Source: Spirochaetota bacterium (GTDB lineage: Bacteria > Spirochaetota > UBA4802 > UBA5550). Taken from it: a stretch of 64,000 nucleotides of DNA. Within the stretch, counting starts at the first letter, position 1, and the number at the start of each line of letters is the position of its first letter. The notes beneath the pieces are model-generated. The model worked only from the letters and a program-made list of their open reading frames with translations, did not search any database and was not told the DNA's origin. The stretch spans positions 2,112,001 through 2,176,000 of the forward strand of contig CAXXHB010000003.1 in the NCBI GenBank assembly GCA_963664815.2, written 5' to 3'. Position numbers and translations under genes: made by a program. Shown here one piece after another: positions 1 through 10,300 of the stretch.

Positions 1-1092
1 TGGGCGTCATACGATATCGAAACTTAATTCCAGTCAGTTAGATACGAGAGATGTAAGTAACGATATAAAATTCATAAGGGATACAGATTGGACCTGTGAA
101 GAACTTTTGAAGCTGAACAGGGATTATCTGAAAAATACAGCAAAAAAGAGTAAAGCAGGCTTTTTAATAATAGACGATACAGTTATAGAAAAACAGGGAA
201 AACCGAAGAAGATAGAGGGCCTTGGATGGCATTATTCCCATTCAAAAGGAAGAACTGTATATGGTCATTGCATGGTAAGCAGTCATTACAGAATTGGAGA
301 TATATCCTTTCCCGACGATTTCAGGTTTTATCTTAATGAAGACATAGCAGATAGATGCGGGAATGAATTTAAAAGCAAGCCCGATATAGCATGTGAATTA
401 ATTGAGAAGTTTGAATCTTTTACAGGAGAGAAGGTATACTGTTTAACAGATAGCTGGTACACATCTGAAAAGTTGTAAAAGCTGTACAAGCCAGAGAGTT
501 TGAACTTATAGGATCGCTCAAGAGTAATAGAGTATTCCAGTTCATGGAGCATGGTAAAAAACATAAGCTGTCAAGTTATGTTAAGAACTTAAGAAACTCA
601 TCCTTTGAAGAAATAATATTAAAGGGTGAAGCCTTCAAAGTCAGGCGGATAGAGGTCTGGCTGAAAGGTATCAGAGTTGTGATACTGATATCAAAAAGAG
701 TCAAGGACGGATCTAAGATGTTCATTCTTAGTACAGATATGAACTTGAGCAATGAAGAGATACTGAAATATTACAGCTACCGCTGGGATATTGAAGTTGG
801 ATATCTTTATTGTAAAGATCGTCTTGGAATGGGTCAATACCAGATGAGAAAACTGAAGGCAATAGGAAAATACTGTGCTCTTGTATTTGCTGCGTATGCT
901 TTACTTGAATCATTGAGAGTTTCTAATAATGAACAAAGTCTTGGTAAATCAAGGCAGTACTTCAAGATTATGAAGAAAAGGGAATATGTTGATCAGGTGA
1001 TCATATTACATAAAAAGGGTGTTTCAAAAAGAGACATCTATAAAAAATTAAAACTCGTGGCGTAGATATGTCTAAAAAACGCCTAACTCGAG
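1..1092 (+). mobile_element. IS701-family insertion sequence; left part lies outside the window
   Basis: DDE transposase fragments (IIDDTVIEK...GWHYSH...YGHC; DSWY; Y..RWDIE...KDRLG). The right end ...CCTAACTCGAG at 1092 abuts a sequence (1093 onward) that recurs uninterrupted at 6840. Confidence 0.75.
2..1065 (+). pseudogene. IS701-family DDE transposase, frameshifted at ~470
   Basis: The frame is open from base 2 to the TAA at 478. The neighbouring frame continues KVVKAVQAREFELIGSLKSNR into ORF 544-1065, consistent with one A lost in GAAAAG at ~467-472. Confidence 0.75.
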
Positions 1093-1255
1093 TAATTAAC
1101 TGATTCAGAATTATAGAACAGATCAATAAAATGTCAATATGTCCACTCAGCATAATTATTGCCAGATGTTCACTACGCACATCGCCGGACTTATTGAACC
1201 AGAAACTTTATACAGTCACCGGCGACGTCGTCAAGCTACTCAATTATACGATATG
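1093..1255. repeat. Palindromic cassette-boundary element, copy A (attC-like), with promoter-bearing left flank
   Basis: Closely similar to 6840-7000. Outer arms GCATAATT/AATTATAC, inner stem ACATCGCCGG/CCGGCGACGT. The core is also shared with 4727-4837. Confidence 0.85.
1110..1137 (-). promoter_or_regulatory. Consensus sigma70 promoter inside the copy A flank
   Basis: Minus strand reads TTGACA-N16-TATAAT. Confidence 0.6.
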
Positions 1256-1303: not shown

Positions 1304-1834
1304 TTATGTATCAAACTCTATATTAACTTTTGGGGCATTTTTCATAACAAATTTTTTTTCTTTATATAATTTATAAGCTTCATCACCAATATAAAAATAA
1401 AAGCTGCTATTTTTACTTTGCTTTAAATTTTTTTTAATCCATTTCTGATATTCATTATATTGCTTATTAAGCCATTCAGGTTTTTTTATTAACTCTCCTT
1501 TTTCATCATAATATTTTGTTTGAAACCAAATTCGACCATTCCATAATTCGTTATCATTAACTATCTCACATCGTGAAAACTCGATAACCTCTGACAATGT
1601 ATCATCCACAAAACCGTTTTTCTTTATAAATATTTTCGAATCAGTTTTCATGATAAAAATTTTTCCGATTGTTGTTGAATCTAGTCTTTTACCTGAAATA
1701 TAACTTACTAGTTCCCCTATTTCATTTACTTTATTTCCACTTTTATCTACTATCACATCATTGTTCTTCTTAATAAATTCAATAAAAGATAGTTCATCAT
1801 TGGCTGTCATAAAAAAACTAATTTGCTTTCCCAT
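1304..1834 (-). CDS. Putative immunity protein for the orphan nuclease-like toxin
   Basis: 176 aa, very AT-rich, starts 11 bp after the toxin stop. Position is typical of CdiI. Confidence 0.7.
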   Translation of the reverse strand: MGKQISFFMTANDELSFIEFIKKNNDVIVDKSGNKVNEIGELVSYISGKRLDSTTIGKIFIMKTDSKIFIKKNGFVDDTLSEVIEFSRCEIVNDNELWNGRIWFQTKYYDEKGELIKKPEWLNKQYNEYQKWIKKNLKQSKNSSFYFYIGDEAYKLYKEKKFVMKNAPKVNIEFDT

Positions 1835-1845
1835 ATTCAGTATCC

Positions 1846-4728
1846 TTATTTATTATATGGATAGAATTTAACTCCATATCCAGCATTTTCAAAATCCTGA
1901 ATAGCTTTTGCTTCTCTTGAAACGGGAAGTCCACCTTTTGTTTCTTTCCCCACTTGAATGATAAATTTTTCCCCTGTTTCCTCATTTTTTACTAAAGCAT
2001 CCCCCCATCTTGATTCTTTAAACCCACCGGGTGTTTCTACTTTATATTCTGTTTTAACAGTATATCCATTCTTTTCAAAATCTGTTACAACTTCAGAAAT
2101 TTTCTCTTGATGAAGTGGACCACCTGCTTTTCCATATGGATTAGGAACTGCTTTAGCTACATCATCCGCTTTCCCTGTTACACCCAAAACATTCTCAGCA
2201 CTTGTAATACCGGAAACTGATAATCCTTTATTTATTAAAGCATTCTCAATCAATTCACCTGCAATGAAACCAGCCACTTCAGCAGGGTGTTCGGTTACCT
2301 TCTCTTTTACATTTTCTGCTACATTGCCTAAATAGTTTCCTGCACCCTGTTCACTTATATTATCTGCTAAACCTGTTACAGTCTCAACTCTTTTATTAAA
2401 TTCATAAGCACTTCCCAGTGCAGGATTTATCAGGTATAATCCACCTGTTGTTAATGATTCTTTTATTTCATCCTTAGTCGGTAATGAAGATAAAAGTCCT
2501 TCACCAAATTCACCTGCGTAATACGATAAATCCTTACCTTTTTGTCCTTCTAAATATTCATTAGTCTTCGATCTGTCCAGTTCTTTAAAGTCGGCAAGAT
2601 ACTTAGCCTCTTTTGTTTTCTCATTCGCCGCCCTTTCCTTCGCGAACTTAACCTCAATTGCATGTGCCGCATCAGGGTCAATCTCTTTAAGCAGCGCTAT
2701 CTTGGCATTTATTACAACCGCAGTATCTTTCGTATATGTATCAAGAATATCCTTTGACAGACTATTTGATAGCTCCTGCTTTACAGTTTTGTAAGCATTC
2801 AGCATATCCATCTGCTCATCGGGGCTCAGTGCTTCTCCGACAAGGTTTTTTGATCCGTAATATGCAAGTGTCTCTGATGCACTTACAGGTTTCCCGTTTT
2901 CAACCTTCTTCTCGTATTCATCCATTGTCTGGAATGATGATACATTTTTATCTTCTGTATAGTGGTCAAATTTTAACAGGTTCTCAGTCTTCTCAATTGT
3001 TGTTTCAATTTCCTGATCTACCTTCTTCGCTGTTTTCTCTGCTTCAGTTAATCCACTTTCCAATGCACCCACTGTATCATATAAAGTCTTTTCCCTGTCT
3101 TTTATCAGTTCTACTGTTGCGGTATCTACCGTAACTCCGCCTTTAAGTCCTCCGCTGTATGTATTGTATTGTGATATTGTTACATCTCTGTTAAGTCCCT
3201 CTGCCGATGTTTCCGGTTTGGTTATTGTTATTGTTCCTGCTCCTATTGTGGCCAGGTTTGTCTGTCTGTTGTCTGTGTAGCCGTAGTTTAAGCTTGAACT
3301 GTACGTATTTTCTGTTGGTTTGAAGCTGCCGCTTGCGCTTCCACCTGCATTGAAAGATACGTCCTTGTCCTTTATGTTGCTGAACTCAAGGCTTCCGGTT
3401 GTAAGTGTCAGGTTATCTGTTGTTGATGCTATTACTGCCCCTCTTAGGGTTGTCTTGTCTTCAACGTCTACGTTTACTGTCCCGCCGGTTAGGGATGTCT
3501 GTTCTGTTACCCAGCTTTTCTTCCCCGTGGAGAAGTTTGCGTTTACTCCGGCATTTCCCGATACGTTTTCGCCTGTTACACTTACTCCCCCGCTTGCGCC
3601 TATGGTCTGCGAGCTGTTTTTACTTTTATCCTGCAGTGATTGTACCACAAGGGAACCATTTACATCAAGGTCAAGCTCGTTTTTCGCCTTTACCACTCCG
3701 CCGATTACTGTTGTGTCTTCGCTGCTCTTTATTTTTATGTTGTTTCCGCTTAAATGTGCGTTGGTATATGTTTTGCTTTCGCTATCTGTCTCCGTGCTGT
3801 CTGCTGATGCATTAACTCCAATTGCTCCCGATGTTCCGAAACTTACCTTCATGTTGGCATGTTTCTTATCTTCGCTGCTGCTCTCTCTGTTCTCCGCCGC
3901 GCTTATCTCCACATTCTCTGCGTCAAGGGTTATATCCTCACCGGCTGCCACGCTGCTCCCCTTTACCTCCGCTTTGCTCCCCGCTGTTACAGTAAAGCTC
4001 CCTCCGGTTTTTATTGTCGATGCCTTTGCAGTTGTGCTTTCCGATGTCGATTTTGTTTTTGTGGCGTCTATTTCAAACTGGGCATCTCCGCTGAAGCCGA
4101 ATGCCTCTGCAGATCCCGCCGCCCCCGCTGCGCTTTGCAGCAGCGCCGCTGTCTTTGCTACCACGTTCTCCCCGCAGAGCGCTATATTCGCAATGTAAAA
4201 GGCCTCCTGCTCTCTTATTGAATCCAGATCATCCTGGTCTATAAGGTTGTTTTTATGGTCATCTTCTGCTTTCTTCAGGCTCTCCCTGTATTTCTCATAA
4301 TCATTCTTTGCCTTTACAACTGCTTCCTTTGCCTCTACCAGAGCCTTTGTTGCGTATGCTACATCCGTTGCGGCATTCTTGCCCCCAAACGAAAATTCCA
4401 CGCTTCCGTGAGTCTCTTCTGCTGTATGGCTTGTCTTCTCTTCTGTTGTCTTTATGCTTACGTTTTCTGCCGCCGTAAGGGTTACATCTCCACCGGTATT
4501 TATCTCAGATCCCGCTACTGTTATATTCTTTCCGCTGTTTACCGTAAGATCTTCCGATACATTAAGTTTTGATGAGCTCTGTGTCTCCCTGTCTGTCCTC
4601 TCCTTTACGCTGTCGTAGCTCCCCCCTGCAAGCGTTACTGACGCTCTCCCCTGGTCATAGTCAAAGGCGTTTTTGGGGTTGGTAAACAGGTCCATGTTTA
4701 TCCCCATTGTGGTCTTTTCAATATTCAT
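1846..4728 (-). CDS. Orphan CdiA C-terminal module with putative PD-(D/E)xK nuclease tip
   Basis: The first ~700 aa duplicate CdiA (8023-10115). The unique tip NPYGKAGGPLHQ...E..V.TPGG...R.GD...IIQVGK...PVSRE resembles REase-fold toxins. No signal peptide or TPS domain. Confidence 0.75.
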   Translation of the reverse strand: MNIEKTTMGINMDLFTNPKNAFDYDQGRASVTLAGGSYDSVKERTDRETQSSSKLNVSEDLTVNSGKNITVAGSEINTGGDVTLTAAENVSIKTTEEKTSHTAEETHGSVEFSFGGKNAATDVAYATKALVEAKEAVVKAKNDYEKYRESLKKAEDDHKNNLIDQDDLDSIREQEAFYIANIALCGENVVAKTAALLQSAAGAAGSAEAFGFSGDAQFEIDATKTKSTSESTTAKASTIKTGGSFTVTAGSKAEVKGSSVAAGEDITLDAENVEISAAENRESSSEDKKHANMKVSFGTSGAIGVNASADSTETDSESKTYTNAHLSGNNIKIKSSEDTTVIGGVVKAKNELDLDVNGSLVVQSLQDKSKNSSQTIGASGGVSVTGENVSGNAGVNANFSTGKKSWVTEQTSLTGGTVNVDVEDKTTLRGAVIASTTDNLTLTTGSLEFSNIKDKDVSFNAGGSASGSFKPTENTYSSSLNYGYTDNRQTNLATIGAGTITITKPETSAEGLNRDVTISQYNTYSGGLKGGVTVDTATVELIKDREKTLYDTVGALESGLTEAEKTAKKVDQEIETTIEKTENLLKFDHYTEDKNVSSFQTMDEYEKKVENGKPVSASETLAYYGSKNLVGEALSPDEQMDMLNAYKTVKQELSNSLSKDILDTYTKDTAVVINAKIALLKEIDPDAAHAIEVKFAKERAANEKTKEAKYLADFKELDRSKTNEYLEGQKGKDLSYYAGEFGEGLLSSLPTKDEIKESLTTGGLYLINPALGSAYEFNKRVETVTGLADNISEQGAGNYLGNVAENVKEKVTEHPAEVAGFIAGELIENALINKGLSVSGITSAENVLGVTGKADDVAKAVPNPYGKAGGPLHQEKISEVVTDFEKNGYTVKTEYKVETPGGFKESRWGDALVKNEETGEKFIIQVGKETKGGLPVSREAKAIQDFENAGYGVKFYPYNK
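2628..4720. repeat. ~2.1-kb direct repeat, copy 1 (orphan module; copy 2 lies inside cdiA)
   Basis: Aligns with 8023-10115 at offset 5395. Near-identical over ~2880-4720 with scattered SNPs, more diverged over 2628-2880. Confidence 0.95.
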
Positions 4729-4837
4729 ATCGCATAATTATTACTAATCATTCACTTTCTTACATCGCCGGACTCACAGTAACAGAAAATTTGTCCAATC
4801 CCCGGCGGTTTTGTTCAACTACTCAATTATGCGATAT
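4727..4837. repeat. Palindromic cassette-boundary element, copy B (attC-like)
   Basis: Perfect 13-bp terminal inverted repeat ATATCGCATAATT/AATTATGCGATAT. Inner ACATCGCCGGACT...CCCGGCG and CTACTCAATTAT are shared with copies A and C. Confidence 0.85.
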
Positions 4838-4951
4838 AGGGAATTTTTTGTGTCAGTGAACTGAACTTCTATACAAAACCTTTTTTTTTATTCATCAAAA
4901 CATTTTTTTTAGTAAACTTACAGCTTGAAAACTTTTGCAGTACAAATAAAT

Positions 4952-5266
4952 TTATTTAATAAGAATCATACTGATTAGTATTCTGAAATTAACAAAAACA
5001 AAACCCAATAAAAGTAAGATCTTCAATTCATCTTCATAATTCCAACCTATTTTATTTGTTATCCATATTACTATCAATATTGTGACTATAAAATATACCA
5101 CATAATTTGATGAATTATTAAAAACACTCTTAAGTTTATTAACTTTATCCCAATCATTGTTTTTTTGTGCATTATACCTTTTTATAAAAAACATTACTAT
5201 ATACATTACAGTTGTAGCAATTATTAATAAAAATTCCAAATTAATTATACTATGCGATCTAAGCAT
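4952..5266 (-). CDS. Putative membrane immunity protein
   Basis: 104 aa with about three hydrophobic segments, directly downstream of orphan toxin 5356-6597. Confidence 0.6.
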   Translation of the reverse strand: MLRSHSIINLEFLLIIATTVMYIVMFFIKRYNAQKNNDWDKVNKLKSVFNNSSNYVVYFIVTILIVIWITNKIGWNYEDELKILLLLGFVFVNFRILISMILIK

Positions 5267-5355
5267 AAATCTCCATTATTAAATATATTCTGTGCTGTTT
5301 AAAATAAATATCAGCTTTCTAAAAAAGGTTTTTTGAATTAAAATCTTTTAAAAAT

Positions 5356-6597
5356 TTAATCTTCGTTGACTCCGGATGTACCTTTTTTTAATCTATTTTT
5401 TACAATCGAATCAATAAATTGTTTTTGTTCAGATTTAATTAACTCCCCAGTACCATTTACACTTTTATCCACAACTTGTGTGCCTGTAGTGATTGTAGGT
5501 GTACCAGCAGTATATGTTAATGATGCTTCAGATGTCGTGATCCCTCCTCTAATTCCGATTTTCTGTGTTCCAAAATCTACTTCGACAATGACATTTTCTA
5601 AGCTTAAAGAAACGGTTCCGAAAGGATTTCCATCTCCATAACTTACGCCTGCTGTTATTGAACCTATTGTTTTTGGACCTATTCCAACTGTAGGATTAAG
5701 TTTACCTGAAATAGTTGCATCTTTATTAACAGTAAATTCGCCCGTACCACTTAAAGTGAGACCACCTCCTCGTCCATATACGTCTTCTTCTGCAAGAACT
5801 GTAGTAGAAACAACAACGTCTCCCTTCGGTAAAAATTCAATTACTTTGCCTAAGGTAGTTTTTTCTATAGAAGTCTGTACATCGGTTATCAGCCTATCTC
5901 CTTCTTTTAATTTATATGGATATTCAAGCTGAGGATTGTTCTTTAAGAATTTTTCTTTTTCTGTATCAAAATCGGTATTTATACCGAGTGCAACTTTCCT
6001 TTTTACATCTGTTTCAATAAAATCATCAACCAATGTATCACCTTTATCTACACGTTCAGTTATAACATTAACGGTACCTTTTTTGTCATATTCTTCAAAG
6101 GTTTTAGTATAAAGTAATGGTTTAGAACGTGCTACTACTCCACCATCTTCACTTGTATCAAGTTCTTTCGCCTTTTCGCTACCCTTAACCAGTGTATCTG
6201 ATTCAGCATTCGCATTATTCCAGTTAATTACAGCATCATGATTTGTAGTTGTTGAAGCTGTTTCTGAAAACCTGTTCCATAAATTTCCCGCCTGTTCTCC
6301 ACGTGAAGATGCAAGTGTAAGCTGCTGTCCTGCATCAAGGTCCAGCCCATTAGTGGTGTTATCCTTCCTCTGGGCTTCCCAGAAGAGTGATGTAATAATA
6401 TCTCCACCCTTTGATATATCTGTTCCTTCGGTATTCAGATATGTTTCATTATTATTCTGGTCATATGCTGCTGCATATCCATTCATCGCGTTATCTGTTT
6501 TATCTCCCTGATACAGATTTACATGAGATATTTTATCATCCTTAACTCCATCGCTGCTCTGAACAGTTTCAGAAACCTTATTAACCGCTTCTTTCAA
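5356..6597 (-). CDS. 5'-truncated orphan toxin C-terminal module with a LysM-like segment
   Basis: The frame stays open upstream to ~6825 without a start codon (AEVEEATETTKAKEGLG...). LysM-like V.KGDTL...NPQL..P..LKEGDRL and a Gly-rich C-terminus. Sits between two boundary elements with a small partner gene. Confidence 0.6.
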   Translation of the reverse strand: MKEAVNKVSETVQSSDGVKDDKISHVNLYQGDKTDNAMNGYAAAYDQNNNETYLNTEGTDISKGGDIITSLFWEAQRKDNTTNGLDLDAGQQLTLASSRGEQAGNLWNRFSETASTTTNHDAVINWNNANAESDTLVKGSEKAKELDTSEDGGVVARSKPLLYTKTFEEYDKKGTVNVITERVDKGDTLVDDFIETDVKRKVALGINTDFDTEKEKFLKNNPQLEYPYKLKEGDRLITDVQTSIEKTTLGKVIEFLPKGDVVVSTTVLAEEDVYGRGGGLTLSGTGEFTVNKDATISGKLNPTVGIGPKTIGSITAGVSYGDGNPFGTVSLSLENVIVEVDFGTQKIGIRGGITTSEASLTYTAGTPTITTGTQVVDKSVNGTGELIKSEQKQFIDSIVKNRLKKGTSGVNED

Positions 6598-6839
6598 TGA
6601 TGCCGCATCTTTATCAAGTGCATTATCGAGTTTTTCAGCTAAAGCCTTGTTCTCTGCCAGGGCTGCTATTGTTAATACATCCTTACGGGCATTAATTACA
6701 GCCTCGAGTGTACCCGCGAATCCAAGACCTTCTTTAGCTTTGGTAGTTTCTGTTGCCTCTTCAACCTCTGCCCGTATACAATCCTGAGAAAACGGTTTTT
6801 CACTGTATATACTATAAAAAAATTACTTTCAAAGATCAA

Positions 6840-7000
6840 TAATTAACTGATTCAGAATTATAGAACAGATCAATAAAATATCAATATGTCAACTCAACAT
6901 AATTGTCGCTAGACGTTCACTACGCACATCGCCGGACTCAGTATCAGAAACTTTATACAGCCCCGGCGATGTCGTTCTAGCTACTCAATTATTCGATATG
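6840..7000. repeat. Palindromic cassette-boundary element, copy C (attC-like), with promoter-bearing left flank
   Basis: CATAATT-GTCG-CTAGACG...ACATCGCCGG...CCGGCGATGT-CGTTCTAG-CTACTC-AATTATT. Closely similar to 1093-1255. Confidence 0.85.
6857..6884 (-). promoter_or_regulatory. Near-consensus sigma70 promoter inside the copy C flank
   Basis: Minus strand reads TTGATA-N16-TATAAT, pointing into the orphan module 6597-4952. Confidence 0.55.
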
Positions 7001-7044: not shown

Positions 7045-7332
7045 TTAAAAAAGCTTAAGAATTTTTCCCGTGGCGATCTCTTTCCCTTCCCAAAGTGTTA
7101 TAAGCTTTCCTCGTTTTAATTTTGGTAATACTAAATCTGGATTCATGAATTTTACAGGAATCTCATATATTCCACCCAATTGAAGCTCTCGACCTTCAAG
7201 TATCAAACGACAATCGAATCCGCTCCCGTCAACGAATAGAGGACACCCATAGACTTGACCTACTACAGAAGTTTTTCGTCCTCCTTCAGCAGTTGTTTTA
7301 AAACGAACCTCAATAATAACATCTGGCTTCAT
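7045..7332 (-). CDS. Putative CdiI immunity protein resembling EF-Tu domain III
   Basis: 95 aa, 7 bp after the cdiA stop. EV.....EGGR.T...Y and G..I.LWEG.EIATGKILK parallel EF-Tu EVYILSKDEGGRHT...[20 protein letters not shown]. Confidence 0.7.
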   Translation of the reverse strand: MKPDVIIEVRFKTTAEGGRKTSVVGQVYGCPLFVDGSGFDCRLILEGRELQLGGIYEIPVKFMNPDLVLPKLKRGKLITLWEGKEIATGKILKLF

Positions 7333-7339
7333 TTAAATT

Positions 7340-10300
7340 TTACCTCGATGTAAGTGGCATGTAATCAAGTACAGTTGGCACAAGCTTTTCTAAACGTTCA
7401 TCTGGTATTACCCAAGCAGATATACCACGATCAACTATTGCTGGCGTGAGCCCTTCAAAAATAGTTTTTGGGACATCAGTTTTTATTAATGTATAAGGAG
7501 CATCGCCAAATCCATTTACAGCTTGTTTAGCATATGATGCTGCATCCTCTGCATATGTTGAAAAATATTTACCTTCTGCTGATCCTAAATTTCTAAGAAC
7601 TCCACTTGATTGAATATCAGCTAATTCATTCGGACCGACAGCACGATATAATGTTTGAACTTTCTCAACAATTTTTCCTGCAGCATTTGCAATATCATCA
7701 CCATGTTCAAAAGCTTCTTCACCTATGTTTTCAACTACTTTTCCTGTCCCTCCTATTGGTATAATAGGGAGAATAATAGCAGCGGCAGCAAAGCCTTTTT
7801 CTGTATCTGTTGCTTCCTCACCATACTGATTTTTACCTGTAGCTAAAGTGTTAGCACCTATCACAGCTCCAAATAAAACATCATCTACACCACCGCAAAT
7901 TCCCTGAGCACTGACCCCTTCATTTGCGAACATCTTTGTCTCTTTTGCTATCTCATTTCCCTGCTGTATCTCCGCATCTCTTAAACCTGAATTTACCGCC
8001 AGCTGCTTAGCATAGGCTATCTCCGCCCTTTCCTCCGCAAACCTAACTTTAATTGCATGTGCCGCATCAGGATCAAGCTTTTCAAGCAGCGCTATCTTGG
8101 CATTTATTACCAGTGCACCATCTTTTGTATATGTGTCAAGAATATCCTGCTTCAGATCATTTGCTACTTCTTTGGTTCTTGTCTGAATCGCTTTATTCTC
8201 ATCCTGCTGCTCTTCAGGACTCAGTTTTTCTCCGACAGCTTTTTTTAACTCATAATAATCAAGCTTCTCCTGCGCACTTACAGGTTTCCCGTTTTCAACC
8301 TTCTTCTCGTATTCATCCATTGTCTGGTATGATGATACATTTTTATCTTCTGTATAGTGGTCAAATTTTAACAGGTTCTCAGTCTTCTCAATTGTTGTTT
8401 CAATTTCCTGATCCACCTTTTTCGCTGTTTTCTCTGCTTCAGTTAATCCACTTTCCAATGCATCTACTGTATTATATAAGGTCTTTTCCCTGTCTTTTAT
8501 CAGTTCTACTGTTGCGGTATCTACCGTAACTCCGCCTTTAAGCCCTCCACTGTATGTATTGTATTGTGATATTGTTACATCTCTGTTCAGTCCCTCTGCC
8601 GATGTTTCCGGTTTGGTTATTGTTATTGTTCCTGCTCCTATTGTGGCCAGGTTTGTCTGTCTGTTGTCTGTGTAGCCGTAGTTTAAGCTTGAACTGTACG
8701 TATTTTCTGTTGGTTTGAAGCTGCCGCTTGCGCTTCCACCTGCATTGAAAGATACGTCCTTGTCCTTTATGTTGCTGAACTCAAGGCTTCCGGTTGTAAG
8801 TGTCAGGTTATCTGTTGTTGATGCTATTACTGCCCCTCTTAGGGTTGTCTTGTCTTCAACGTCTACGTTTACTGTCCCGCCGGTTAGGGATGTCTGTTCT
8901 GTTACCCAGCTTTTCTTCCCCGTGGAGAAGTTTGCGTTTACTCCGGCATTTCCCGATACGTTTTCGCCTGTTACACTTACTCCCCCGCTTGCGCCTATGG
9001 TCTGCGAGCTGTTTTTACTTTTATCCTGCAGTGATTGTACCACAAGGGAACCATTTACATCAAGGTCAAGCTCGTTTTTCGCCTTTACCACTCCGCCGAT
9101 TACTGTTGTGTCTTCGCTGCTCTTTATTTTTATGTTGTTTCCGCTTAAATGTGCGTTGGTATATGTTTTGCTTTCGCTATCTGTCTCCGTGCTGTCTGCT
9201 GATGCATTAACTCCAATTGCTCCCGATGTTCCGAAACTTACCTTCATGTTGGCATGTTTCTTATCTTCGCTGCTGCTCTCTCTGTTCTCCGCCGCGCTTA
9301 TCTCCACATTCTCTGCGTCCAGGGTTATATCCTCACCGGCTGCCACGCTGCTCCCCTTTACCTCCGCTTTGCTCCCCGCTGTTACGGTAAAGCTCCCTCC
9401 GGTTTTTATTGTCGATGCCTTTGCAGTTGTGCTTTCCGATGTCGATTTTGTTTTTGTGGCGTCTATTTCAAACTGGGCATCTCCGCTGAAGCCGAATGCC
9501 TCTGCAGATCCCGCCGCCCCCGCTGCGCTTTGCAGCAGCGCCGCTGTCTTTGCAACCACGTTCTCCCCGCAGAGCGCTATATTCGCAATGTAAAAGGCCT
9601 CCTGCTCTCTTATTGAATCCAGATCATCCTGGTCTATAAGGTTGTTTTTATGGTCATCTTCCGCTTTCTTCAGGCTCTCCCTGTATTTCTCATAATCATT
9701 CTTTGCCTTTACAACTGCTTCCTTTGCCTCTACCAGAGCCTTTGTTGCGTATGCCACATCCGTTGCGGCATTCTTGCCCCCAAACGAAAATTCCACGCTT
9801 CCGTGAGTCTCTTCTGCTGTATGGCTTGTCTTCTCTTCTGTTGTCTTTATGCTTACGTTTTCTGCCGCCGTAAGGGTTACATCTCCACCGGTATTTATCT
9901 CAGATCCCGCTACTGTTATATTCTTTCCGCTGTTTACCGTAAGGTCTTCCGATACATTAAGTTTTGATGAGCTCTGTGTCTCCCTGTCTGTCCTCTCCTT
10001 TACGCTGTCGTAGCTCCCCCCTGCAAGCGTTACAGAAGCTCTCCCCTGGTCATAGTCAAAGGCGTTTTTGGGGTTGGTAAACAGGTCCATGTTTATCCCC
10101 ATTGTGGTCTTTTCATGGATGCTGTATTCGTAGCTTGTCTCTTTTGCGCTTGTTTCTGTAAAACTGCCGGTTGTGTCAAATTCCGCAATGCCGGCGTTTA
10201 TGGCGCTCCCCTCCATCAGAAAATCGCCGCCTGTGGATGCTTTAAGTTTTCCGGCAGTTATTGCAGATCCCGCGGCTGTTGTTGCTCCGTTTCCGGCTGC

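Follow-up and report, generated by a model that had tools for sequence, protein, structure and literature searches.

A polymorphic toxin is usually neutralised by an unrelated immunity protein that binds it and plugs an active site. We analysed a window of 64,000 nucleotides (nt) from a Spirochaetota bacterium (assembly GCA_963664815.2, contig CAXXHB010000003.1, positions 2,112,001 to 2,176,000 of the forward strand; numbered here from the first letter of the window) in which the gene for a two-partner secretion (TPS)/CdiA-like exoprotein with a polymorphic toxin tip is followed by an open reading frame (ORF) for a protein of 95 amino acids (aa). By profile alignment and modelling, this small protein is a stand-alone homologue of domain III of elongation factor Tu (EF-Tu), and the toxin tip before it is predicted to have the ADP-ribosyltransferase (ART) fold, in a previously unannotated domain of ~105 aa. 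The toxin family is new, and so is the proposed origin of its immunity protein, inside a known kind of system.

Among described systems, TreTu/TriTu from the Rhs-main protein of Salmonella Typhimurium (7ZHL, 7ZHM; PMC9825190) is the one to compare; here and below, statements taken from cited sources refer to the parts of them that were available. TreTu and the present toxin are both small ART-fold tips of ~100-110 aa, and EF-Tu is the proposed partner of both. The spacing between the essential R6 and E12 of TreTu equals that between R9 and E15 here, a strand-1 Arg followed six residues on by a Glu (PMC9825190). However, HMMER detected no sequence homology between the two, either with the single sequence or with profiles (E <= 10), and H31 and W68 of TreTu have no evident counterpart here. 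The residue modified by TreTu is D21 in the P-loop of the G domain, and helix D is its docking site (PMC9825190), whereas the present toxin is predicted to sit on domain III. TriTu, a five-stranded sheet with two helices, lids the NAD pocket (PMC9825190), whereas the immunity-type protein found here is modelled as a domain III barrel.

The CdiA-CT toxins of EC869, NC101 and Kp342 share with this locus the delivery by a CdiA-type exoprotein and the binding of EF-Tu in the target cell, but these toxins are tRNases of the BECR fold for which EF-Tu, bound at domain II, serves as a cofactor, and the CdiI proteins cover their RNase active site and do not resemble EF-Tu (PMC9071432). The small ART Rhs tips RhsP2, Tre23, TreThr, TreX and Tne5 differ in their targets, which are RNA, FtsZ or NAD, and the available parts of the sources describe no immunity protein derived from a target domain for any of them (PMC13617354, PMC13285283). 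Doc is a kinase directed at EF-Tu (cited in bioRxiv 10.1101/2025.10.28.685041), Tse6 and Rhs2CT use EF-Tu for entry (bioRxiv 10.1101/2025.10.28.685041), and the BECR tRNases and SRLase1 use it as a cofactor, via domain II where the site is known (PMC9071432, bioRxiv 10.64898/2026.09.18.752725). As far as the accessible text of these sources goes, an EF-Tu-derived immunity protein is described for none of TreTu, Doc, the BECR tRNases, SRLase1, Tse6 and Rhs2CT. Full-text literature searches yielded no stand-alone EF-Tu-domain immunity protein and no domain III-directed ART, with the limit that supplements may list such families under other names, and the term EF-Tu was not found in the first 300,000 of the 357,715 characters of PMC3482391.

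Two of these EF-Tu-dependent toxins were considered as relatives of the present toxin and rejected. SRLase1, a BECR-like RNase, was set aside because the toxin has nothing that corresponds to the conserved R70, D72, H85 and H97 of this RNase, the toxin family has no conserved His and the toxin model has the ART fold. Serratia Rhs2CT is an HNH DNase of unrelated fold that binds EF-Tu close to the GDP site (bioRxiv 10.1101/2025.10.28.685041).

A first-pass annotation of the window had aligned the 95-aa protein by eye with EF-Tu domain III. The strings that it quoted were all found in the sequence (EVRFKTTAEGGRKT and GKLITLWEGKEIATGKILKL, and also LYRAV, ELADIQSSG and EGKYFST), the ORF table lists both ORFs at the positions it gave, and the alignment proved to be beyond chance. 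When a 217-sequence alignment of the family was compared by hhalign with an alignment of EF-Tu domain III built from 30 genomes of the same phylum, the probability was 96.8% (P 2.6e-10, 84 columns), with EGGR placed on EGGR and WEG-K on REGGR. Against full-length EF-Tu, domain III was the sole match (95.8%). As controls, 20 column-shuffled alignments gave at most 3.7% and the reversed one 0.7%. With a 45-sequence alignment the probability was only 43%, and the broader alignment of 217 sequences was therefore needed. The AlphaFold2 (AF2) model of the protein was a six-stranded barrel with a predicted local distance difference test score (pLDDT) of 95.0 and a predicted template modelling score (pTM) of 0.83. 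Foldseek returned 113 matches to this model at E <= 1e-3; among the matches listed, all were EF-Tu, with a query TM-score (TMq) of 0.76-0.84. The model fitted EF-Tu domain III with a root mean square deviation of ~2 Å over 89 residues, at a sequence identity of about 16-26%.

Single-sequence searches with the 95-aa protein gave no Pfam, NCBIfam or PDB sequence match, and a PDB search with the immunity profile gave a chance-level match only (PTPN4). The Pfam family of EF-Tu domain III, GTP_EFTU_D3 (PF03143), touched one of 45 members of the immunity family (E 0.02, below the Pfam cut-off), and in this genome it matched the real EF-Tu gene alone. Nine of the 30 nearest clusters in the ESM Atlas belonged to a set in which 13% of the members of the cited cluster carry PF03143. 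The immunity protein shares with PF03143 the six-stranded barrel and the EGGR, PG/LG and EG..G motifs in register, but it is stand-alone, lies below the Pfam gathering threshold and is encoded after a toxin domain.

The immunity family is unannotated and its members are about 95-105 aa long, with 97 proteins at E <= 0.01 among 100 candidates and 680 cluster representatives at E <= 1e-3. The best 150 of the 680 representatives measured 56-273 aa; none was of GTPase length. The 95-aa protein is stand-alone, with neither G domain nor domain II, in agreement with the earlier statement that its gene lacks a G domain. R10, E16, G18, R19, G53 and G83 are invariant in the family. Conservation is shared with EF-Tu domain III at the EGGR loop, at one Tyr, at the PG/LG turn and at the EG..G motif, while C30, C41, R42, F62 and W81 are conserved residues of the family's own. 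The hairpin equivalent to TTDVTG of EF-Tu is two residues shorter. EF-Tu domain III lacks C30 and C41 (window 7210-7245, minus strand), which the immunity family conserves at 94-95%; the two cysteines may pair in a disulfide, make up a metal site or touch the toxin. Some members of the family (P0252, P0246, P0300 and P0285) have N-terminal transmembrane-like extensions or an extra C-terminal domain. P0148 matched both the toxin and the immunity family and is either a fusion or a read-through call, and P0171 matched the immunity profile alone.

The toxin family and the domain III-like (D3-like) family are near-obligate neighbours. Of 78 metagenome loci that contain the toxin domain, 65 had a D3-like gene directly downstream on the same strand, its start falling between -21 and +31 nt from the end of the toxin domain match. 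The other 13 loci comprised six with <300 nt downstream of the toxin ORF, six with a truncated toxin domain and one with a full domain and no such gene. The 65 pairs corresponded to 56 distinct DNA stretches, and across the 56 distinct pairs the divergence of toxin and immunity protein was correlated (Mantel r 0.68, reached by none of 999 permutations), which is expected for linked genes and compatible with co-evolution. A search that began with the immunity gene gave 17 genome loci, seven with the toxin domain directly upstream and one more with a remnant of it. This genome has one copy each of the toxin domain and the immunity gene. In six loci from Chlamydiota, Verrucomicrobiae and uncultured metagenome-assembled genomes (L034, L035, L037, L043, L044 and L047), a D3-like gene with no cognate toxin domain upstream follows another conserved small ORF of ~125 aa, and in L035, L037 and L043 these small ORFs come after a large one; the arrangement looks like a poly-immunity array. 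The first-pass annotation had pointed to gene neighbourhoods as the place to look, and the survey placed D3-like genes directly after the toxin domain or inside such immunity-type arrays. In the one metagenome locus with a full toxin domain and no D3-like gene (L118), the toxin is a stand-alone ORF of 118 aa and the sequence downstream covers 577 nt.

Relatives of the toxin domain were found in carriers of several kinds. There were 68 short proteins at E <= 0.01 among 82 candidates and 82 long proteins at E <= 0.001; most of the long proteins had RHS-repeat or YD-shell families and two had DUF637. Two Streptomyces relatives carried WXG100 or type VII secretion system (T7SS)-signal domains. No long relative had a Pfam family on the tip itself, and a Pfam scan of ten divergent long relatives gave carrier domains only and no ART family. 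No match to the toxin tip was obtained by tblastn against plasmids.

The tip had been noted before for an ART-like pattern at its start, and its model was consistent with this. The AF2 model of the core (pLDDT 88.0, pTM 0.80) had the order beta1-alpha1-beta2-alpha2-beta3-beta4-beta5 and showed the split beta-sheet alpha/beta fold that can be superposed on solved ARTs. Foldseek gave no match to it at E <= 1e-3. TreTu (7zhm/7zhl) occupied rows 1, 2, 3 and 5 of the result, the best being 7zhm_A with a weak E of 3.8e-3 and TMq 0.50 (25% identity over 110 columns, Foldseek 3Di+AA); the remaining matches were Tpt1/KptA, CC0527, diphtheria toxin, ParT, MbcT, TreX and PARP14. With VIA-align, RhsP2 tied for the top Z against the toxin model. 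Leads at the sequence level were weak. ART-PolyVal touched six of 39 toxin relatives (best E 0.057), and its match covered ~25 residues in the two matching members among ten that were re-scanned (E <= 10). For the toxin homologue P0142 the nearest ESM Atlas cluster was Tox-ART-HYD1 at 0.89, all leads being below 0.9; a single-sequence hhalign comparison of Tox-ART-HYD1 with the toxin family gave 1% probability, and Tox-ART-HYD1 was found in one of 401 genomes of the phylum sample. PDB searches with the toxin profiles (HMMER, E <= 10) gave a chance-level inhibin match with alignment A2 and no match with alignment A3. For the ART assignment, the structural evidence is thus stronger than these sequence leads.

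The catalytic triad of ARTs is distributed over strands 1, 2 and 5 (R-[ST]-E, H-Y-[QED] or H-H-h). In alignment A3 of the toxin family R9, L16, K34, Y35, F36, Y46, P89 and P98 were invariant, and E15, N27, E32, G33, Q49, D56, D80 and others were at least 90% conserved, with E15, N27, E32, Q49 and D80 near-invariant. In the model R9 is on strand 1, E15 is on helix 1, K34-Y35-F36 is on strand 2 and is followed by S/T, and D80 stands just before strand 5. Strand 5 carries no Glu that is conserved in the family alignment, so that the candidate acid is D80, and a minimal R-type active site made up of R9, E15, K34-Y35-F36-S/T and D80 is proposed from the model.

The lack of a conserved canonical strand-5 Glu would also fit a different activity, in which the tip is an ART-fold NAD(P)+ glycohydrolase that depletes NAD, EF-Tu domain III is a helper for entry or activation, and the immunity protein blocks the same surface. 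ART-fold Rhs tips with NADase activity exist, such as Tne5 (PMC13285283), and Tse6 is an NADase that needs EF-Tu for delivery (cited in bioRxiv 10.1101/2025.10.28.685041); furthermore, a TNT-family cluster appeared in the Atlas at rank 17 (score 0.84) for P0142. However, the nearest Foldseek match is a transferase that modifies EF-Tu, and the EF-Tu contact predicted below uses elements of the catalytic cleft (the pre-strand-2 loop, Y35 and D80), a place expected for an acceptor and not for a distant helper site. Neither point is decisive, and we regard a glycohydrolase as unlikely.

It had been suggested from inspection of the locus that the toxin docks on EF-Tu domain III. When the complex of the toxin core (alignment A3) with the full-length 404-aa EF-Tu of this genome (alignment A4) was predicted with ESMFold2, the toxin was placed on domain III and not on the G domain or domain II. 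The interaction prediction score from aligned errors (ipSAE) was 0.80 (0.76-0.82 between runs), as against 0.00 for the best of three controls, and the runs showed at least 92% contact agreement and a partner pLDDT of at least 85. Of 80 solved complexes 58 reached this ipSAE mark, as did two of 110 mismatched pairs; these counts calibrate the score only roughly because our own alignments were used. No ART-EF-Tu domain III complex was among the structure matches and we know of no solved one, so that a pass from a memorised solved complex is unlikely.

The predicted EF-Tu contacts in domain III were 313, 329-340 (from the Arg of EGGRH), 346-349 and 351 (the TTDVTG hairpin), 372, 374-375 and 388-392 (REGGR), with further contacts at 258 and 298 on the rim of domain II and none in the G domain. 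Across 20 EF-Tu sequences, 18 of the 26 domain III contacts were at least 90% conserved. The toxin made contact through 28-33 (the loop before strand 2), 35, 46, 49-50, 53-54 (helix 2), 75, 77-81 and 85-87, which include Y35, Y46, Q49, A50, G53, F54 and D80 on the conserved cleft side; ten of these 21 contacts were at least 90% conserved in A3. The most confident pairs joined D80/V79 of the toxin to Q340, D347, V348 and T349 of EF-Tu, and helix 2 to I374 and T375. In the model these six EF-Tu residues are close to D80 and are candidate acceptors; the numbers are those of the EF-Tu of this genome, and subtracting 11 gives the E. coli numbers. The contacted residues Q329 and E378 (E. coli numbering) are on what we take to be the domain III face that packs on domain I in the GTP form, in the region of kirromycin-resistance mutations; on that assumption the open GDP form would be the likely prey. 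Through the hhalign register, the EF-Tu contacts mapped to immunity positions 19-31, 37-40, 61-64 and 81-84, which include R19, Y28, C30, P31, D40, W81, E82 and G83. V348 and T349 of EF-Tu fall in the two-residue gap of the immunity family.

A prediction of this kind could also arise if the domain III barrel were a mere scaffold for immunity, the real target another protein or RNA, and the docking on EF-Tu an artefact of its likeness to the immunity partner. Relatives of a true partner can pass prediction, as close cousins did in 10 of 12 colicin pairs, and fused toxin+immunity ORFs exist that were possibly learned by the language model. The small ART Rhs tips Tre23, RhsP2 and TreThr modify RNA (PMC13617354), and RhsP2 is the tip that tied for the top VIA-align Z. 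On the other hand, the immunity protein and domain III are only ~16-26% identical and distant relatives passed in 0 of 84 cases in the prediction benchmark, the contacted EF-Tu residues form the most conserved loops of domain III, and the recruitment of a translation-factor domain is hard to explain without toxin affinity. This scaffold reading seems rather improbable to us.

In another alternative the toxin would modify an EF-Tu-bound substrate, ADP-ribosylating aminoacyl-tRNA or the ribosome with EF-Tu as a platform. EF-Tu-dependent toxins are documented (CdiA-CT of EC869 and NC101; PMC9071432, PMC5737660), SRLase1 uses EF-Tu as a platform (bioRxiv 10.64898/2026.09.18.752725), and the contacted EGGRH loop is where EF-Tu contacts the T-loop of tRNA, the Arg of EGGR being R318 of E. 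coli, which acts together with H319 (PMC9071432). However, the EF-Tu-dependent toxins known from CdiA proteins attach to domain II, and their folds are those of BECR RNases and not of ARTs (PMC9071432). The predicted toxin footprint covers R329/H330, and the toxin would therefore compete with tRNA and not coexist with it, which counts against a platform role. We consider such a role very unlikely.

On balance we lean slightly towards an explanation in which the ART-fold tip acts on EF-Tu via domain III and the cognate immunity protein is a domain III descendant that occupies the same cleft. In silico support for it comes from the modelled folds, the homology, the pairing of the two genes and the docking predicted on domain III, and all computational checks run from those proposed in the first-pass annotation favoured its interpretation. 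In the target cell, the toxin would dock its conserved catalytic cleft onto EF-Tu domain III through the EGGRH loop, the TTDVTG hairpin and the REGGR loop. With NAD+ it would then inactivate EF-Tu, probably by ADP-ribosylating a domain III residue, and translation would stop; the modification would block either the binding of aminoacyl-tRNA or the movement of domains between the GDP and GTP forms. Inside producer cells, the look-alike of domain III would fill the same cleft as a tight, non-productive pseudosubstrate, and this decoy reading is supported in silico. We infer the NAD+ chemistry, the role of EF-Tu as acceptor and an interface common to the immunity protein and EF-Tu; the toxin could be an NADase and not a transferase, and EF-Tu could be a cofactor or import helper instead of the substrate. 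More tentatively, and with somewhat less than even confidence, we propose that the immunity protein is an exapted copy of the toxin's target domain, a non-modifiable pseudosubstrate that out-competes the most abundant protein of the cell, and that the toxin is the first ART attacking EF-Tu via domain III. Under such an exaptation the EGGR and EG..G loops gripped by the toxin would have been kept, and the hairpin facing D80 would have been shortened by two residues.

Several observations weigh against this explanation. The tip had no Pfam or NCBIfam match and, in HMMER searches at E <= 10 with the single sequence, no match to any PDB chain including TreTu, and strand 5 lacks the conserved Glu mentioned above. 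ART-fold Rhs tips can be NADases, as Tne5 is (PMC13285283). TreTu acts on the G-domain P-loop, not on domain III, and has an immunity protein of unrelated fold (PMC9825190). The complex score is the model's own confidence and the docking is a prediction; ESMFold2 may have carried a learned toxin-immunity contact over to the homologous domain III, and read-through toxin+immunity ORFs such as P0148 exist in databases. By a hand tally, conservation in the immunity family was ~61% at the contact-equivalent positions and ~56% elsewhere, a difference so slight that it adds no weight. Furthermore, EF-Tu is very abundant, and a decoy must therefore bind the toxin far more tightly than the target does.

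If the explanation is true, the protector is one domain of the very protein that the toxin attacks, copied and detached. Immunity would then have evolved by a new route, and what an uncharacterised toxin targets could be hinted at by the fold of its immunity protein. It would also define a widespread toxin family with RHS, CdiA-type and T7SS-type carriers in many phyla, and a new vulnerable surface of EF-Tu made up of the domain III loop for the tRNA T-arm and the adjoining conserved loops.

The locus itself is a contact-dependent, two-partner secretion polymorphic toxin system of classic layout, with a TpsB transporter, a TPS/filamentous haemagglutinin (FHA) exoprotein that ends in a polymorphic tip, a small gene downstream of it and orphan modules (Table 1). 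All genes of the locus are on the minus strand, in the order tetratricopeptide repeat (TPR) protein, TpsB/CdiB-type transporter, exoprotein, 95-aa ORF and orphan modules. The transporter gene adjoins that of the exoprotein, which has a TPS domain and FHA repeats, and the variable tip is followed by the immunity gene and, further downstream, by the orphan modules. The label cdiA given to the exoprotein gene in the first-pass annotation needs a qualification: the product is a TPS/FHA-type exoprotein with a TpsB partner, and a Pfam scan of the 2303-aa exoprotein gave no VENN or DUF637 match and solely a sub-threshold PT-TG match.

Table 1. Features of the toxin locus and its surroundings, in window coordinates.
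Feature	Position	Strand	Evidence or remark
All-TPR protein, 481 aa	16746-18191	-	Directly precedes the TpsB gene
TpsB/CdiB-type outer-membrane transporter, 610 aa	14897-16729	-	Pfam ShlB 3.7e-82, POTRA_2 5.5e-19, POTRA_3 1.5e-14
TPS/CdiA-like exoprotein, 2303 aa plus stop	7340-14251	-	Pfam TPS domain 5.2e-42, Fil_haemagg_2 2.4e-46
Polymorphic C-terminal tip, ~227 aa, variable linker and toxin domain	7343-8023	-	Identity break against the orphan copy
PT-TG-like pre-toxin stretch, weak, ending ...IPIGGTGK	7733-7864	-	Pfam E 0.045, 14.2 bits (cut-off 23.5); lead only
Toxin core, predicted ART-fold domain, 109 aa modelled	7343-7669	-	
GAGG, Shine-Dalgarno-like motif	7343-7346	-	Lies in the exoprotein gene, at its end; the immunity ATG follows 10 nt later; read from the sequence
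Immunity-type protein, 95 aa, predicted stand-alone EF-Tu domain III homologue	7045-7332	-	
99-nt direct repeat (D3)	6840-6938; second copy 1093-1191		93% identical; repeat search
Orphan exoprotein fragment, 960 aa, different tip	1846-4728	-	Fil_haemagg_2 1e-35; repeats D1, D2; 91% identity to the main gene
ORF of 176 aa after the 960-aa orphan fragment	1304-1834		

Over 359 aa that end in ...FAEERA, the exoprotein and the orphan copy shared 91% identity; past this point they had no similarity. The gap between the TAA of the exoprotein gene and the 95-aa ORF is 7 nt. Downstream, the second orphan module consists of a 413-aa exoprotein fragment and a 104-aa membrane ORF, both orphan modules lying within 1304-6938, and no Pfam family was found on any of the orphan tips and small ORFs of this interval. 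The 481-aa TPR protein may belong to the secretion operon. One copy of the 99-nt repeat lies just after the main module and the other after the orphan module with the 960-aa fragment, and the repeat may be a recombination or regulatory element. A 173-aa fragment of a DDE transposase (544-1065, plus strand; DDE_Tnp_2 1e-06) lies at the edge of the toxin island.

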